Shown: piece by piece, positions 3,927 through 11,343 of the stretch | Layout of the letters: each line of letters opens with the position of its first letter | Numbering within the stretch: position 1 is the stretch's first letter | Assembly: GCA_040377305.1 (NCBI GenBank) | Contig: JBEIPA010000012.1 | Span: 64,001 to 128,000, forward strand | From: Flavobacteriales bacterium | GTDB lineage: Bacteria; Bacteroidota; Bacteroidia; Palsa-965 | Direction: 5' to 3' | Length of the DNA stretch: 64,000 nt | The notes under the pieces: model-generated | Told to the model about the DNA's origin: nothing | Seen by the model: the letters and a program-made list of their open reading frames with translations, nothing else | Databases searched by the model: none | Program-made: the position numbers and the translations under genes

Positions 3927-4271
3927 ATGAAAACCAACCTGCTTGTTCGCGTAATTACACTTTCCGGATTTACAATTCTGATGAGTGGATTTGTTGCGTA
4001 CAAAGCGGGTGCATTTGAATCGGGCTCGAATGTTAATGCTGACTCTCCGGTTAAGGATACCCTTTCACCGTTGATTTACGCACCAAGTTCCAAGTCGGGT
4101 CCGGTGTTTATTAGTGCTTCAAGTACTCAAGACACGGTAAAGCTACAGTCGACAGAGCAGCAAGCACCAAACCAGCGTGCTGAGCCACCAAAAGTGAAGA
4201 CTTATATGGGTGGAAGTAAATCGAAGCAGGTATTTACTCCTGAGCCAAAAGACACAAGCAAGCCGAAATAA
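3927..4271 (+). CDS. Small membrane-anchored protein with two xxSKS motifs (YAPSSKS, YMGGSKS)
   Basis: ATG at 3927; hydrophobic N-terminus ending FVAYKAGAFE; N-terminus is paralogous to that of the next gene. Confidence 0.75.
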   Translation: MKTNLLVRVITLSGFTILMSGFVAYKAGAFESGSNVNADSPVKDTLSPLIYAPSSKSGPVFISASSTQDTVKLQSTEQQAPNQRAEPPKVKTYMGGSKSKQVFTPEPKDTSKPK

Positions 4272-4277
4272 AAGCTG

Positions 4278-4748
4278 ATGAAGACTTTTCATCCTGCGGT
4301 AAAGATTCTTACAGCATCAATTTTCTTTTTGTTGATGTTCGCGTTTGTTGCGTTCAGATCGGGAGCGTTTGACGGAACACGAGCAGCACAAATCAAGCTT
4401 CATGTGAGTCGGACAGGAAAAAGTCATCACCAGAAATCAAACGATCCGAATAAAAGAGCAGTTCACGAAGGACGTCCAACGCTTAAGCAACGTGCTTCGA
4501 CAATTGAGATAAATCCAGAATGGGCAATGATGGCCAGTTCGAAGACAATTGTTGCTACACCTGTACATTGGTCTTTCGTCGGAAATTCTTTTGGGTCTAA
4601 TGCCTCACGCGCTATGATGTCGAGTTCCAAATCAACTCTCATGGTCTCTGAAGCGGAATTATATTCAGTCTACCGTGGAATTTTTAATGTTCCTTATAGC
4701 GACAAAACAGTAGGTAAAAACGAACAGCTGAAGCAAGGCAAGAAGTAA
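4278..4748 (+). CDS. Small membrane-anchored protein with two SSK[S/T] motifs (MMASSKT, MMSSSKS)
   Basis: Hydrophobic N-terminus ending FVAFRSGAFD; 6 nt after the previous gene and 1 nt before the next. Confidence 0.75.
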   Translation: MKTFHPAVKILTASIFFLLMFAFVAFRSGAFDGTRAAQIKLHVSRTGKSHHQKSNDPNKRAVHEGRPTLKQRASTIEINPEWAMMASSKTIVATPVHWSFVGNSFGSNASRAMMSSSKSTLMVSEAELYSVYRGIFNVPYSDKTVGKNEQLKQGKK

Positions 4749-4749
4749 G

Positions 4750-5622
4750 ATGGAGCAGCTCAAGGAAATATTCGACTTGATTTGGCCAACCGGCTTGAGC
4801 ATTCTGTTCCTCGCCATCCTTTTCATTCCCATGGAAAAAGTTTTTCCTGCGAAACCGGGACAGAAAGTATTTCGTCCGCGTTGGTTTACCGATCTGCTGT
4901 TTTTTCTCGGACAATATCTTTTCTGGAGCTTCTTCGTGTTCTGGGTGCTCAGCTTTTTCAGCGAGTGGATTTTCATGATTGTGCCCGAAGGATTCAGATC
5001 AGCCGTTGCATCACAACCCTGGGCGCTTCAGGTGTTCGAGGTAATTGTGTTAAGCGATTTCATCATCTACTGGGCACATCGTCTGCAGCATAAAGTGGAT
5101 TTCCTCTGGCGTTTTCACAAAGTACATCACACCGCCGAGCATCTCGATTGGCTGGCTGCACACCGCGAACATCCGCTCGATTCGATTTACACCATCGGAC
5201 TGATTAATCTGCCCGCATTCATTCTCGGATTTCCGTTGGAGACAATCGCCGGCTTAATTGCTTTCCGTGGCATCTGGGCAATTTACATTCACTCAAATGT
5301 GCGCATTCCCCTCGGACCATTGCGTGTACTCATTGGGTCTCCGGAACTGCATCACTGGCATCACGAACTCGAACGCGATCGCGGTAACTACGCAAACATT
5401 TCTCCGATCATGGACAAACTGTTTGGAACATACACCTGTCCCGATCACGAACCGGAGCATCTCGGCATCAAAGAAGAATTTCCCAAACACTACGTTGGAC
5501 AGCTCGTTCATCCGATCCTGCCGAAGAGAGTGGGGGATTGGATGTTTAAGAAGAAGAAGGCCGTTGTTACGATGAAACCAGAGCCCATTCGTGAAACAGT
5601 CGAAGTTCAGGTTCCACAGTAA
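4750..5622 (+). CDS. Sterol desaturase / fatty acid hydroxylase superfamily membrane di-iron enzyme
   Basis: Histidine boxes YWAHRLQH, FHKVHH, YIHSN and HHWHH; several TM segments; NY...DKLFGT tail. Confidence 0.9.
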   Translation: MEQLKEIFDLIWPTGLSILFLAILFIPMEKVFPAKPGQKVFRPRWFTDLLFFLGQYLFWSFFVFWVLSFFSEWIFMIVPEGFRSAVASQPWALQVFEVIVLSDFIIYWAHRLQHKVDFLWRFHKVHHTAEHLDWLAAHREHPLDSIYTIGLINLPAFILGFPLETIAGLIAFRGIWAIYIHSNVRIPLGPLRVLIGSPELHHWHHELERDRGNYANISPIMDKLFGTYTCPDHEPEHLGIKEEFPKHYVGQLVHPILPKRVGDWMFKKKKAVVTMKPEPIRETVEVQVPQ

Positions 5623-5708: not shown

Positions 5709-6476
5709 ATGAATGATCATGAAAAACAACTTTGGAACAGGATTAAAGAGTTTCAATTCGATGAACCGGAAGTAGCATTTAGCTTTTCCGACCGGTTGGC
5801 AAATGAGAACAACTGGAAAAAGGATTTCGCCATTCGGGCGATTGAAGAATACCGCAAGTTTATTTATCTCTGCTGCGTTGCTGGACATCAGGTCACTCCT
5901 TCCGATGAAGTAGATCAGGTATGGCATCTTCACCTCACTTTTACTAAATCGTACTGGAAAGAGTTGTGCGAAAAAGTTTTGGAGAAAGAGTTGCATCACA
6001 ATCCAACAAAGGGCGGTAAAGTTGAAGAGAAGAAGTTCGACTTGTGTTACTCGAAAACGTTGGTTTCTTATCGCAATCACTTCGGAGTTAATCCTCCGGT
6101 AGATTTATGGCCGAATGGAACTACACGGTTTCAAAATGCAAATCATATACGCGTCGATGCACTTCGAAACTGGATAATTAAAAAGCCACAGCGAAGAATC
6201 CGAATTGCATTTGTAGTTCTACTTCTTTCGATCGGAGGACTCCTGAATGTTCAGGCATACGACAACAAGGATGTGATTGTCGGGTTTGGTGTAATGGCAG
6301 TGATTGCGGTTATCGGAATTATCACCTGGCGAAACGGTGGAGGAAATGGAAATGGGGGAAGTTGTTCATCCGGTTGCAGCACGAGCGGTTGCGGTGGATC
6401 ACACAGTGGATGTTCTTCGAACGGTTGCAGCTCCGGTTGTGGTGGCGGTTGCGGTGGAGGCGGATGTGGAAGTTAG
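5709..6476 (+). CDS. Glycine-rich-domain (GRDP/DUF1399-like) membrane protein with Gly/Ser/Cys tail
   Basis: RLANENNW...AIEEYRKF...TPSDEVDQVWHLH...Y...C...HHNP core; two TM segments; C-terminal GC-repeat tail. Confidence 0.75.
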   Translation: MNDHEKQLWNRIKEFQFDEPEVAFSFSDRLANENNWKKDFAIRAIEEYRKFIYLCCVAGHQVTPSDEVDQVWHLHLTFTKSYWKELCEKVLEKELHHNPTKGGKVEEKKFDLCYSKTLVSYRNHFGVNPPVDLWPNGTTRFQNANHIRVDALRNWIIKKPQRRIRIAFVVLLLSIGGLLNVQAYDNKDVIVGFGVMAVIAVIGIITWRNGGGNGNGGSCSSGCSTSGCGGSHSGCSSNGCSSGCGGGCGGGGCGS

Positions 6477-6546: not shown

Positions 6547-7275
6547 CTACTGCCGCTGCAACTGATTTTTAGGAACAATCTTATCCATCACTTTCCCACC
6601 CATCTCTTTTCCTTTTTCTTTTCCTTTTTCCTTCGCTTTCTCCTTCACCTCTTCTTTTACTTCTTCCTTCACTTGCTCTTTCACGGTAGTTGGAGCGGCA
6701 GCTGTTGTATCACTCGCATTCGAAGGAGAAGGTGCTGGTTTTGTTTTTCCCGTTCCTGCTTCGTCGATGGAAAGGTTAGTTGGACTAACAGCGCCATTAA
6801 CTGCGTCTGCAGGTGATTTCACCTTACCGGTTCCGGCTTCATCAATTGTGATTTGTCCACCTCCCCCATCAAGTCCACTCGCACCAGCAGGTGGAGCCGG
6901 AGCAGGTGATGCTTCTTCAGCCGGAGCAGCTTCAACTTTCGATGCAGATGTTCCAGCCTCAGCTTCTTTTGGTTGTTCCGGCTCGGGTTCACTCGGTCGC
7001 TCAAGTCCAGGAACACTTGGATTATTCGTAGTTGAGTCGGTACGATTCGCGTCGTTCTTAGTCTTCGTTTTACCTGTGCCAGGCTCATCGATGGTTATCT
7101 CCTGAGGAACACCACCGGATGGTTGATCGCGATTATTGACCGTAGTTGTATCCACAGCCTCCGCAGCATCTTTCTTTTTATTCTTCTTTTTCTTTCCTCC
7201 GTCTTGTGCGTAAGCATCGGCAGACAAAATCACTGCAGCCGCAAGAGTTAATAAAGTAAGTAGTCGTTTACTCAT
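6547..7275 (-). CDS. Secreted low-complexity protein with three IDE[A/P]GTGK repeats
   Basis: Signal peptide MSKRLLTLLTLAAAVILSADAYA|Q; Pro/Ala/Glu-rich linkers; Lys/Glu-rich tail. Confidence 0.75.
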   Translation of the reverse strand: MSKRLLTLLTLAAAVILSADAYAQDGGKKKKNKKKDAAEAVDTTTVNNRDQPSGGVPQEITIDEPGTGKTKTKNDANRTDSTTNNPSVPGLERPSEPEPEQPKEAEAGTSASKVEAAPAEEASPAPAPPAGASGLDGGGGQITIDEAGTGKVKSPADAVNGAVSPTNLSIDEAGTGKTKPAPSPSNASDTTAAAPTTVKEQVKEEVKEEVKEKAKEKGKEKGKEMGGKVMDKIVPKNQLQRQ

Positions 7276-7389: not shown

Positions 7390-9828
7390 TTACTTAGACA
7401 ACTCAATTGCCTCAGGTACAGACACTTGCTCCCCTTTATAGAAAGCAATAATGAAGCATTCCGGGAAGCCCTGAGCACGCATTTTGTCTTTCAGCGCGGT
7501 GATATCGGAATAGCTGGAAGTGCCACCTACTGTGTATCGCGTTAAGCCTTGTGTTGTGGTCGACTTCTTCAGTCCAACCACTTTATCAAACTTCGCCTGA
7601 TCTTCTGCTGATGGAGCATTCTTGTATGCGCCCAACTGAACCTGGAACTCAACAAATCCTTTCGTGCCTGCACCTTGAGCTGTATCAGGTGTCATCGGTT
7701 CAACTTTCATGTAGGTTGCTCCGGCTTTCTCGAGTGGAATTCTCTTTCCTTGTTTATACGCAACAATAAACGCTCCTGAATATCCTTTAACCAACAACGC
7801 AGCTTTCGCATCAGATGCTTCCTGGAATGTTTTGTATGAACCAGACATGTACTTGTAAAGTCCGTCATCCGTCTTGAAGTAAAGTAGATCTGGAACATCT
7901 GCGAATGTTGCTTTGGAAATCGGACGACTGAATGCACCAACCTGAACGCGGAAAGTTAATCCCGTATCATTCGGCATAGTTTTCACACCGCCGTTAGTTC
8001 CACCTGTATTTCCTCCGGTGTTGCCACCTGTATTTCCTCCGGTGTTACCACCAGTATTTCCTCCGGTGTTACCACCTGTATTTCCTCCGGTGTTGCCACC
8101 TGTATTTCCTCCGGTGTTACCACCTGTATTTCCTCCGGTGTTGCCACCTGTATTTCCTCCGGTGTTACCACCTGTATTTCCTCCGGTGTTACCACCTGTA
8201 TTTCCTCCGGTGTTGCCACCAGTATTTCCTCCGGTGTTACCACCTGTATTTCCTCCGGTGTTGCCACCTGTGTTTCCTCCGGTGTTGCCACCTGTATTTC
8301 CTCCGGTGTTGCCACCCGTATTTCCTCCGGTGTTGCCACCTGTATTTCCTCCGGTGTTACCACCTGTATTTCCTGCAGTGTTGCCAGTGAGGCCTGTTAC
8401 TTCAACCAGTTTTCCATCAGCAGTTTTGTATACGATGGTTGGCGTTTTGAATCCTTGTGCTTCCAGTGCTTTTCTTCTGCGTTCAGCTTCTACGAGATCG
8501 TAAAACTTTCCGGCAGTATATGCTGTAGATGAATCATACAACGAGTGCGTTGCAATATCCGGAACGCTGAGAAAACGCATCATCTGTTCATTGGTGATGG
8601 CGCTGTTGTAAGTCCCGAGCGAAACCATATACACTTTCCGTTCTGCTCCACCTGTCCCGGCAGTATTCTGTCCGTTGAGTTTGACATTCACTGAATGGTA
8701 TTCACCGGTTGAATCGTTGTAAAGCAACCAACGCTTGTATACGATTGAATCTGTCAACGCAATTCCATTCTCGTCGGTAAAGAATTCTTTCGGCGATTCT
8801 AGTTCCTTATCGCGATAGTCAGCCGTGTTGTCAATGTCATCATCAAGCGGACAACCGTGTATGTCAACCGAAACTCCAACAGGTGTGAGTGCGCAGGAGT
8901 CTGACAAATCGAATACGCCATCCATATCGTAGTCATCGTCATTGAACACATAAAGGCTGTCTGTCGGTGCGAATGTGTCAATCTCCTCTTTCTCTTGTCC
9001 GGTGAGATTGTAACGCATTCCGAACGAAGTCATCACGAAATGGTCATTCTTAGAATTGCCTTGACGTGCGCCCGTGCTTTGTGCAGTTATTCCGTCAACA
9101 TAATCGGTGAACGTAAAGTGGAATGTGGTTCCAACAACGGCCTGCCAACGGTCGGTCAGGTGCATCGTGAATCCAATTCCAACAGGAACGGCGAAAGAAC
9201 GTTCAGGATATCTTCCGAAGTCATCCGGATTCGTATTGCGCACATCTGTTTCGTACGTGTAATCGCGCACAAGCATAGAAGCCTGCCACGCGAAGGGATC
9301 GCTTTCGTCAATATTACGGATTGATCCATCAGACCAGTAGTAATAACGATTTCCATTTGCATCGAACAAATCTGTCTTCGATAAGAACTCGAACGATTCA
9401 ATACCAACGCTTACCCACGGCATCACGTTTCTTCTCGTGCGAAAGAAATTCTGAAAGTTGTACTCGAAATGAATTCCGCCAACACGAATTGCTGATTCGA
9501 AATTCACATTGCGTGTAATCAAACGTTCATTTGCCCCAAGCTTTCCGAAGCAGGTATAAAATCCGATGTTGAGGTAGGGAGTAAGCGTTTGATGAACCGA
9601 AAGTTCAAATCCAATTCTGCTGACCTGAAAATTTGCAAGATGCTTATCGTACACGTCGCCGTAATACGAGAACATTCCAGTACCAAGACCTACGGTTGGC
9701 TTAAAAACGAAAGGTGCCGGTTCATCGGCTACTTTCTTTTGCCACAGTCGGGGTTGGACTGTATTTTCCCGGCTGTGCATTATTGCTGTATGCAAAACCA
9801 GTAACAGGACGAAGGTTATTCTTCGCAT
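7390..9828 (-). CDS. Outer-membrane beta-barrel + TSP3-like repeats + (GGNT)30 spacer + SPOR domains
   Basis: Barrel-like N-terminus (VGLGTGMFSYYGD...FTFTDYVD); DxDxDGxxD repeats; SPOR-like segments VYMVSLGTY, FRVQVGAF and FQVQLGAY, the last two ending AFIVAYK.GKRI / FIIAFYKGEQV. Confidence 0.8.
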   Translation of the reverse strand: MRRITFVLLLVLHTAIMHSRENTVQPRLWQKKVADEPAPFVFKPTVGLGTGMFSYYGDVYDKHLANFQVSRIGFELSVHQTLTPYLNIGFYTCFGKLGANERLITRNVNFESAIRVGGIHFEYNFQNFFRTRRNVMPWVSVGIESFEFLSKTDLFDANGNRYYYWSDGSIRNIDESDPFAWQASMLVRDYTYETDVRNTNPDDFGRYPERSFAVPVGIGFTMHLTDRWQAVVGTTFHFTFTDYVDGITAQSTGARQGNSKNDHFVMTSFGMRYNLTGQEKEEIDTFAPTDSLYVFNDDDYDMDGVFDLSDSCALTPVGVSVDIHGCPLDDDIDNTADYRDKELESPKEFFTDENGIALTDSIVYKRWLLYNDSTGEYHSVNVKLNGQNTAGTGGAERKVYMVSLGTYNSAITNEQMMRFLSVPDIATHSLYDSSTAYTAGKFYDLVEAERRRKALEAQGFKTPTIVYKTADGKLVEVTGLTGNTAGNTGGNTGGNTGGNTGGNTGGNTGGNTGGNTGGNTGGNTGGNTGGNTGGNTGGNTGGNTGGNTGGNTGGNTGGNTGGNTGGNTGGNTGGNTGGNTGGNTGGNTGGNTGGNTGGNTGGNTGGNTGGTNGGVKTMPNDTGLTFRVQVGAFSRPISKATFADVPDLLYFKTDDGLYKYMSGSYKTFQEASDAKAALLVKGYSGAFIVAYKQGKRIPLEKAGATYMKVEPMTPDTAQGAGTKGFVEFQVQLGAYKNAPSAEDQAKFDKVVGLKKSTTTQGLTRYTVGGTSSYSDITALKDKMRAQGFPECFIIAFYKGEQVSVPEAIELSK
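8005..8364 (-). repeat. In-frame tandem repeat encoding (GGNT)30
   Basis: 15 copies of a 24-bp unit with alternating codons (GGT GGY AAC ACC GGA GGA AAT ACA) and a few synonymous variants. Confidence 0.95.
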
Positions 9829-9924
9829 TAATCTCAAAAATAGCTATTCTAATTCGAATTCTCTTGGTTTTTAACAGCGAAGATCGTCATGACTGCCTAC
9901 GGCCCAACTGCTCACTGCCTACTG

Positions 9925-11343
9925 CTACTTGATCCACTTTTGACTCGTAATCATCAGCGCTTCCTGCACCGTAATTCTCTTACCGCTGCTGTATGCCACT
10001 ACAAACGGACCTTCAACACCTTTTCCACGAACTGTTTCACGGCTATTTCGTGCATCCTGATAAGTTGTGAATGAACCTGTCGTGTACTTATTCAAACCAT
10101 CAACCTGTTCAGCATTCACCGTATTGAGTCCGTATGTGTTCTCGTAATAATTAGTTGGAACACGACGCACCATTGCTGCAACCTGAATCGAGAAAGAAAC
10201 ACCTTGAGTCTTATTCACGATAGGATCCTGTTGCGTATCTCCGGTGTTTCCGTCATTACCGGTGTTTCCGTCATTGCCCGTGTTGCCTGTATTTTCTGTA
10301 ACCGGATCTTGCCCCGACTTGTTTCCGTTGGCATCGTTCCCCGTGTTTCCGTCGTTACCGGTATTGCCATCATTCCCTGTATTTCCAGTGTTCCCTGTGT
10401 TTCCAATGTTCCCTGTGTTTCCAATGTTCCCTGTGTTTCCTGTATTGCCCGTGTTACCCGTGTTACCGGTATTATTATTTCCAACGATAGCTTCGTTCGC
10501 TTTCATTTCAATAACTGCAGGAGCAATATTCACCAGCTTGTTATCCATGTTCTCGATGTACGAAACGTGTCCGTTGATGGTATAACGCCCAGCTACATCA
10601 GGAGATACAATAACTTTATACTGGGCATGCAATGTTGCGCTCGCCTTGTTTGGATTGTACCACTGCAAACGCACAATTCCATTCTCAAAAGACCAGTCGC
10701 CACCATCGTTCATGACCGACTTTGCAATGAATCCTTCCGGCAATGTATCCTGGAGCTTGATGAAGCTGCTGAGATCGCCCTTTTGTATAGTGATATCAAC
10801 AATGAATTCTCCGGTTACAGGTTCAGTGGGAACAATACGCGTTACTGTAACACTTGCTGCTGGATTTGCAGTCGAATCGTTGGTCTCCGGAATGTAGTTG
10901 CCGTTGTTTTGGGTTCCCGCGTTACCGACAATGAGTTTCATGGGATCAAGTACTATATGACTCGGTAGATTGTCTACTGTATGCGAAAGTTTTTGTGTGC
11001 ATTCAAACGTCCCTTCCGCATCTGACGGAGGTGTAAGCTTGAAGGAAACATTCAGTTCTTCGCGCACACCAACACGTGACCAAAGAAATTTTACGGTGCG
11101 ATCTTCAAACATGAAAGAAGATCCGTCTTCTTCAATCTTTTCTGCTGTCCATCCTTCGGGAATTACCATGGAATAACGAAGCAGCTTATCAACTCCGTTT
11201 GGATCAATTTTCACCTTCACTATCACGCTCTCGCCCTTATTAATCGAAGCAGGAGCCGTAATGGTTGCAGAAGGACCTCCCGCGAGCAGAGAAAAAATCC
11301 ACACAGCTAAAAAGTTCAACGCAAATATCAGTCCTCGTATCAT
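9925..11343 (-). CDS. Membrane-anchored protein with two beta-sandwich-like domains, GN[T/I/D] repeat linker and C-terminal SPOR-like domain
   Basis: N-terminal TM; two similar domains containing IPEGW/LPEGF and VKFLW/VRLQW; GNT repeats at ~10240-10480; FSIQVAA...PFVVAYSSGKRITVQEA. Confidence 0.75.
   Translation of the reverse strand: MIRGLIFALNFLAVWIFSLLAGGPSATITAPASINKGESVIVKVKIDPNGVDKLLRYSMVIPEGWTAEKIEEDGSSFMFEDRTVKFLWSRVGVREELNVSFKLTPPSDAEGTFECTQKLSHTVDNLPSHIVLDPMKLIVGNAGTQNNGNYIPETNDSTANPAASVTVTRIVPTEPVTGEFIVDITIQKGDLSSFIKLQDTLPEGFIAKSVMNDGGDWSFENGIVRLQWYNPNKASATLHAQYKVIVSPDVAGRYTINGHVSYIENMDNKLVNIAPAVIEMKANEAIVGNNNTGNTGNTGNTGNTGNIGNTGNIGNTGNTGNTGNDGNTGNDGNTGNDANGNKSGQDPVTENTGNTGNDGNTGNDGNTGDTQQDPIVNKTQGVSFSIQVAAMVRRVPTNYYENTYGLNTVNAEQVDGLNKYTTGSFTTYQDARNSRETVRGKGVEGPFVVAYSSGKRITVQEALMITSQKWIK

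Follow-up and report, generated by a model that had tools for sequence, protein, structure and literature searches.

The gene for a small protein with a short repeated SKS motif and the gene for an integral-membrane di-iron enzyme of the PF04116 superfamily form a cassette, of which one copy lies in the window (the whole stretch of 64,000 nucleotides that was analysed); the association of the two genes is certain. On balance, we think it probable that the enzyme oxidises, and most simply hydroxylates, the lysine of the motif, and that its partner is an exported, membrane-anchored protein. The system comprises two genes and a short repeated motif, and is present in cultured isolates, among them the harmless species Zavarzinella formosa, Aureisphaera galaxeae and Winogradskyella eckloniae.

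Organization of the locus

The locus contains three ORFs, all on the forward strand and separated by gaps of 6 and 1 nt, as the initial annotation had described. The first (3927..4271, +) encodes protein A, 114 residues long from its ATG, with an N-terminal membrane helix, a disordered linker, two copies of the motif and two D[ST]-hydrophobic sequons. Its N-terminal signal or anchor (residues 1-31; 3927..4019, +) is conserved and ends in an aromatic-h-h-aromatic-basic pattern; in the AF2 model, residues 5-26 form the helix, with pLDDT values of 90-98. Motif A1, YAPSSKSGPVF (4077..4109, +), contains Lys56 (codon 4092-4094), which is invariant in 56 aligned rows. Motif A2, YMGGSKSKQVF (4203..4235, +; Lys98 codon 4218-4220), was read from the sequence and the homologue alignment. 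Protein B (4278..4748, +) is a paralogue of A, with 156 residues, no D[ST]-hydrophobic sequon and two motifs read from the sequence, MMASSKTIV (4527..4553, +; Lys89 codon 4542-4544) and MMSSSKSTL (4614..4640, +; Lys118 codon 4629-4631). All four motifs thus start where they had been placed initially, at 4077, 4203, 4527 and 4614, and the consensus proposed with them was close to the one found here, which is refined to [IML]-[MLIF]-[SPYG]-[SG]-[ST]-K-S-[G/hydrophobic] and, after it, three residues that are mostly hydrophobic. Each small protein has two matches to [SG]SK[ST], against a mean of 0.1 upon shuffling (5000 shuffles, maximum 2). Two small genes in succession are a minority layout, present by profile in five of the 81 loci described below, the window included; most loci have a single one.

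The third gene (4750..5622, +) encodes protein C, a His-box enzyme of 290 residues belonging to the SKS-linked clade of PF04116. Its score on the PF04116 profile, 112.4 bits, is above the curated cut-off of 31, and its AF2 model (pLDDT 91.9) has five predicted membrane helices. Nine histidines are invariant in 77 aligned enzyme sequences, among them H110, H114, H123, H126 and H127 of His boxes 1 and 2 (5077..5130, +) and H181 with H201, H204 and H205 of His box 3 (5290..5364, +), confirming the earlier assignment to the hydroxylase/desaturase superfamily. The clade is further marked by polar residues, including Y56, E97, E140, Y147, N153 and R173; E97, E140, N153, R173 and N216 are invariant in the clade and absent in all six outgroup rows, E140 being part of the signature H138-R-E140-H141 (5161..5172, +). 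Conservation is 0.89-0.93 around the metal site and on the inside, against 0.57-0.58 on the outer face. Scs7p was the top fold match in both searches performed, but the match is weak (Foldseek E 0.82; Z 5.3, rmsd 5.2 over 170 residues). Databases name the small protein "hypothetical protein" and the enzyme "sterol desaturase family protein".

The host genome (5.2 Mb, 99.99% complete) has its nearest named homologues in Bacteroidota. It contains seven PF04116 genes, with SKS matches at this locus only; of the other six, the five that were inspected have no SKS partner, and the paralogues are at most 34% identical to enzyme C. A promoter and terminator scan gave signals at or below chance. Beginning 86 nt after the enzyme, an ORF at 5709-6476 (+) encodes a protein with one membrane segment and a tail rich in Gly and Cys. 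Its GRDP-like match is weak (E 0.036), and it is absent from the conserved neighbours among the 81 loci. On the reverse strand, 6547-7275 encodes a secreted-looking low-complexity protein with three [TSA]IDE[AP]G repeats followed by T/S and Lys. These repeats are conserved in four aligned homologues, all Pfam matches are below cut-off, and the multi-core layout is as in the SKS proteins, with a different motif. Further on, 7390-9837 and 9925-11343 (−) encode two envelope-type proteins, in both of which Gly-Asn-Thr forms long tandem repeats.

Linkage of the small gene to one enzyme clade

A scan of species genomes yielded 294 relatives among 329 pattern matches. The best 80 of the 294, with identities of 63-81%, were analysed, and all 1572 ORFs of these 80 loci and the window (81 loci) were clustered. 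Only two genes are conserved, the enzyme (81/81) and the small protein upstream of it. A third cassette gene was rejected: clusters 2, 3 and 11 consist of shadow frames that overlap the enzyme gene, while every other genuine gene near the pair occurs in at most seven of the 81 loci. By profile, which was seeded from small ORFs of the same loci and is therefore partly circular, an SKS ORF lies at most about 125 nt upstream of the enzyme in 76 of the 81 loci. The gap is 46 nt or less in 69 of these 76, and 20 are overlaps of 1 or 4 nt. Among the five loci missed by the profile, L069 and L071 have an SKS ORF on inspection. In L046 (G360:C74) a five-motif SKS gene is situated about 10 kb upstream of the enzyme, on the same contig and strand, with other genes filling the interval. 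In L008 and L040 the contig stops 118 nt and 75 nt, respectively, before the enzyme is reached from upstream; the L008 genome has an SKS match on another contig, the L040 genome none. The initial annotation had proposed to look for SKS neighbours beside homologues of the enzyme, and the 76 loci answer that proposal.

The two genes are also present and absent together. Among 301 genomes of the window's phylum, the SKS profile and an enzyme of at least 66% identity were found in the same three, adjacent to each other, while 298 have neither; as one of the three positives is the window and another belongs to the training set, the 298 double negatives carry most weight. Five of the 301 have enzyme homologues of 33-40% identity without an SKS match. 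In a second sample, of 61 relatives, 13 have both genes (several of them overlapping with the 80-locus set) and 48 neither; within the genus, both are present in nine of 26 genomes and neither in 17. A 39% homologue in one relative (G331) is likewise without an SKS match. Related genomes are not independent, and these counts should be read accordingly. SKS genes separate from the enzyme, which the initial annotation had regarded as evidence against a pairing, were found in none of the genomes that do not have the enzyme clade. Searching metagenomes from the SKS side, nine of 11 loci, two of the 11 being near-duplicates, have the enzyme directly downstream, and the contigs of the remaining two break off about 55 nt downstream of that gene.

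In 251 genomes of Planctomycetota (the phylum of Zavarzinella), the enzyme matched 24 places. An upstream SKS gene accompanies 11 of the 13 enzymes with at least 44% identity, some of these genes being barely reached by the profile, and none of the 11 enzymes with 40% or less. The two exceptions in the former group are an N-terminally truncated remnant and L141 (44%). When 62 of the 124 enzymes were placed in a tree, all the SKS-linked ones fell into a single 40-row clade with an SH-aLRT support of 92 (99 if L141 is included); the tree is a quick one with long outgroup branches, and contains two label changes. The SKS family thus sits directly upstream of one PF04116 clade in both Bacteroidota and Planctomycetota.

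L141 (G526:C150) branches beside the SKS clade as its most basal neighbour; reading of the sequence suggests a pilin-like gene upstream of it, its genome has no SKS match, and it possibly has a different partner. Enzymes of a separate clade of 33-37% identity (L091-L094) are encoded in a conserved operon whose other genes, as read from sequence, would specify a NeuB-like synthase, a KdsC-like phosphatase and a short-chain dehydrogenase, in most cases together with an acyltransferase; the operon may serve a lipid or sugar pathway. All 132 enzyme-matching plasmid records are below 60% identity (34-38% among those listed) and hence outside the SKS-linked clade. None of eight pattern matches in viral contigs was confirmed, a search of sequencing runs listed no RNA run holding the locus, and a search for fused SKS-enzyme forms in 7993 candidates with lengths of 413-2000 residues gave none at E ≤ 0.01, which is weak evidence.

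The motif lysine and its side of the membrane

In a 50%-cluster library the SKS family has 894 clusters at E ≤ 1e-10. Relaxing the threshold to E ≤ 0.001 raises the number to 2136, of which the weak tail may contain low-complexity noise. Pfam and NCBIfam profiles have zero matches to proteins A and B; over 56 aligned SKS homologues each family matched at most one member, and none of 12 long SKS members was matched. For protein A, the ESM Atlas returned only unnamed clusters, with scores of 0.78 or lower, and a sequence search of solved structures gave nothing meaningful (best E 0.051). Family members have a single N-terminal helix followed by disordered linkers, the remainder being without predicted structure. 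The motif, [IML][MLIF]x[SG][ST]KS plus hydrophobic residues across the family, is usually present in one to seven copies (one to five per protein in 176 proteins, one to seven in a further 127), spaced from eight residues upwards, with a median of 46 residues between the helix and the first motif lysine. This variability in number and spacing suits independent substrate sites, as far as sequences can tell. The aromatic-h-h-aromatic-basic pattern at the end of the helix was observed in 188 of 217 family members and in 14 of 1779 genome controls; in divergent Planctomycetota partners it is rarer (3/9), suggesting that the motif and not the leader is the universal element. A 501-residue Planctomycetota member (P0296) has about ten motifs, another (P0076) contains two leader-plus-motif units inside one ORF, and in a subset including L029, L033, L056 and L065 the membrane helix is followed at a short distance by a further conserved element, S[PH]NG.

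For the analysis of the central residue, strict sites were defined by the flanking residues alone and the central position was left free; for loose sites the flanks were relaxed. Lysine occupies the centre of 247 of 247 strict sites in the first set of 176 proteins and 244 of 244 in the further 127, and of 490 of 494 loose sites, none of which has arginine. Even in 41 proteins whose linkers prefer arginine (408 R, 241 K), the motif lysine is retained at 122 of 123 sites and is never arginine. The flanking serines are less restricted, with T, G, P or V tolerated. The initial annotation had left a choice between oxidation of the lysine and use of the motif for docking; a lysine that is invariant and never replaced by arginine favours lysine chemistry, leaving plain docking less favoured. 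Three other functions of the motif or protein were rejected from the motif table, by comparison with the reference motifs. A catalytic SxxK motif does not agree with the frequent P, Y or G at position −3, nor a lipoprotein with the lack of a conserved cysteine; the third was a flavinylation motif. Beyond residue 35, cysteine occurs in only two of 167 and four of 127 SKS proteins.

The motifs appear to lie outside the cytoplasm, and the conserved N-terminus is a membrane helix; neither point had entered the initial annotation. The N-terminal side of the anchor helix is the more positive one in 66 of 79 proteins, with 11 equal, and in three of 222 members a second, C-terminal hydrophobic helix with a basic tail would place the loop with the motifs outside. 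The 73 SKS proteins from Bacteroidota loci contain 225 D[ST][AILVMT] sequons against 41 ± 6 in shuffled sequences, a 5.4-fold excess, while in 13 hand-picked Ala/Pro-rich members there are six against six. According to PMC12871550, this sequon is glycosylated in non-cytoplasmic proteins only; in a crude gene set of the host genome, exported-like proteins show a ratio of 2.25, against 1.17 in cytoplasmic-like ones. With this sequon in a region predicted to be non-cytoplasmic, the SKS family would fall among the O-glycoproteins of Bacteroidota; protein B has none. In the enzyme, the segments bearing the histidines are the basic ones, and from the charge bias on the model the His boxes are predicted to be on the cytoplasmic side. 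Motifs outside and an active site inside are the main unexplained point of a reading in which the enzyme oxidises the motif. Proteins with a signal anchor are also usually exported while they are being translated, which would leave a cytoplasmic enzyme little time to act.

Proposed reaction, alternatives and known systems

In the mechanism we propose, the SKS motif would be the substrate and its lysine the reactive residue. The conserved N-terminal helix would direct the partner into the Sec pathway and might, in addition, bring it next to the enzyme within the bilayer. With His boxes inside and motifs outside, the lysine would be oxidised before or during export, as has been inferred for the bufferins; alternatively, the motif, flanked by hydrophobic residues, may insert into the polar membrane core of the enzyme from the outside. 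Electrons would be supplied by housekeeping carriers, given that the cassette encodes none. Hydroxylysine would be the likeliest product, with allysine expected from an attack on the epsilon carbon, and the result could be an envelope glycoprotein with several modified lysines for cross-linking or metal binding, likely a membrane-anchored protein rather than a cleaved peptide. A near-irreplaceable lysine, repeated in a disordered chain and encoded by a gene tied to one oxygenase clade, would most simply be a multi-site substrate, and direct oxidation was adopted because of this invariance, the variable repeats and the precedents of OlsE, the bufferins and the DAG-RiPPs. Against it stand the lipid or carotenoid substrates of the superfamily members known to us, the awkward topology, the absence of the anchor-end pattern from most of the divergent Planctomycetota partners, the unpartnered basal L141 and the missing sequon of protein B. 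For the most far-reaching version, a first integral-membrane His-box di-iron protein modifier that converts lysine to allysine, hydroxylysine or N-hydroxylysine and so equips the envelope of Bacteroidota and Planctomycetota with a multivalent cross-linker or metal sponge tethered to the membrane, we see the case as evenly poised.

Co-inheritance cannot distinguish a substrate from a partner, and its strictness fits equally well an enzyme that hydroxylates or desaturates a lipid or small molecule, with the SKS protein as an accessory or regulator and the motif as a docking peptide that stays unmodified. The conserved end of the anchor helix suits such an intramembrane partner, the closest named model is OlsE, and all characterised relatives that we know of act on lipids. 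We nevertheless consider this not very likely: a lysine that is never arginine is unusual for docking by charge, copy numbers from one to seven or more and occasional gene duplication are odd for a stoichiometric subunit, the enzyme is least conserved on its outer face, the side available to exported motifs for docking, and none of the other hydroxylase loci examined has a comparable partner. Were it nonetheless the case, the SKS protein would still be an undescribed obligate partner of a membrane di-iron enzyme.

The mismatch in topology would be resolved if the lysine were modified indirectly, by an aldehyde made by the enzyme or an acyl group placed by a housekeeping enzyme, ending up on the motif outside the cytoplasm; lipid-type chemistry would be kept and the invariance of the lysine explained. 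A transferase, ligase or carrier gene is conserved at none of the 81 loci, however, and as the pair spans Bacteroidota and Planctomycetota any helper would have to be universal. Judging from residues and not from coordinates, E97, R173, Y147 and N153 in the membrane helices are also unlike a long acyl tunnel. Indirect modification is thus unlikely, and the acylated lysine considered in the initial annotation is not supported, with no acyltransferase conserved at any of the 81 loci.

Of the RiPP or PTM layout seen initially, the small precursor, its conserved N-terminus and the repeated cores beside an enzyme stand. A classical RiPP, which would lose its leader and have short modified peptides excised from the variable linkers and released as small molecules, is not supported, and we hold it to be very unlikely. 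Neither protease nor exporter is conserved at any of the 81 loci, and the absence of a conserved protease, transporter, recognition protein or acyltransferase beside the pair disfavours cleaved RiPP and acylated lysine alike. In the motif table the cores have no conserved flanking cleavage motif, although a housekeeping peptidase may release them, and the sequon-rich linkers and the C-terminal helix of three of 222 members point to an intact envelope protein. A chance neighbourhood or low-complexity artefact, for which only the Ser/Lys-rich composition of the small proteins would speak, is already refuted by the shuffles (122 [SG]SKS occurrences in 73 homologues against 3.2 ± 1.8), the matched presence in two samples and the clade boundary.

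If the motif lysine is indeed oxidised directly, a lipid-modifying superfamily would gain protein substrates, and a function could be assigned to a large family, 894 clusters at E ≤ 1e-10, that has no annotation so far. RiPP/PTM mining would gain a class-defining enzyme and with it a new class of ribosomal modified products, and the 11-residue motif would provide a portable tag for site-specific lysine oxidation, useful in protein engineering. In the full-text literature searched, mostly outside subscription papers, neither the pair, the motif nor a protein-acting PF04116 enzyme is described; supplementary tables could list the pair.

Among known lysine-modifying enzymes, collagen lysyl hydroxylase, lysyl oxidase and the EF-P hydroxylase EpmC oxidise protein lysines defined by a motif. 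Their families and cofactors are unrelated, and to our knowledge none is a His-box membrane di-iron enzyme. Scs7p/FA2H, the ERG3-type sterol desaturases and AGMO share the His-box arrangement of PF04116, but their substrates, that of AGMO included, are lipids, and they have no SKS partner. OlsE, a further member of this di-iron fatty acid hydroxylase superfamily, adds a hydroxyl group to C4 of an ornithine headgroup (PMC12971839) and thus oxidises a basic amino-acid side chain in a membrane-held substrate. That substrate is a lipid, however, with no protein partner described in the accessible part of PMC12971839, and the window enzyme scores 121.3 bits on NF052566, below the equivalog cut-off of 475. 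The closest parallels in layout come from MNIO systems, as far as the accessible texts describe them: bufferins have Sec signal peptides that are dispensable for their enzymatic modification (bioRxiv 10.1101/2024.03.18.585515), and DAG-RiPPs are export-signal precursors modified by a neighbouring iron enzyme (PMC13056109). In both, as here, an export-signal precursor is encoded beside a dedicated iron oxidase, and MNIO products are periplasmic or membrane-bound. The cassette differs in its enzyme, an integral-membrane PF04116 protein and not DUF692, in having no partner protein gene, and in its putative substrate, disordered and multi-copy, with a conserved lysine in a motif without cysteine. 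Judged by its sequences, the SKS-enzyme cassette resembles an exported RiPP/PTM pair and lies outside the OlsE and MNIO systems.
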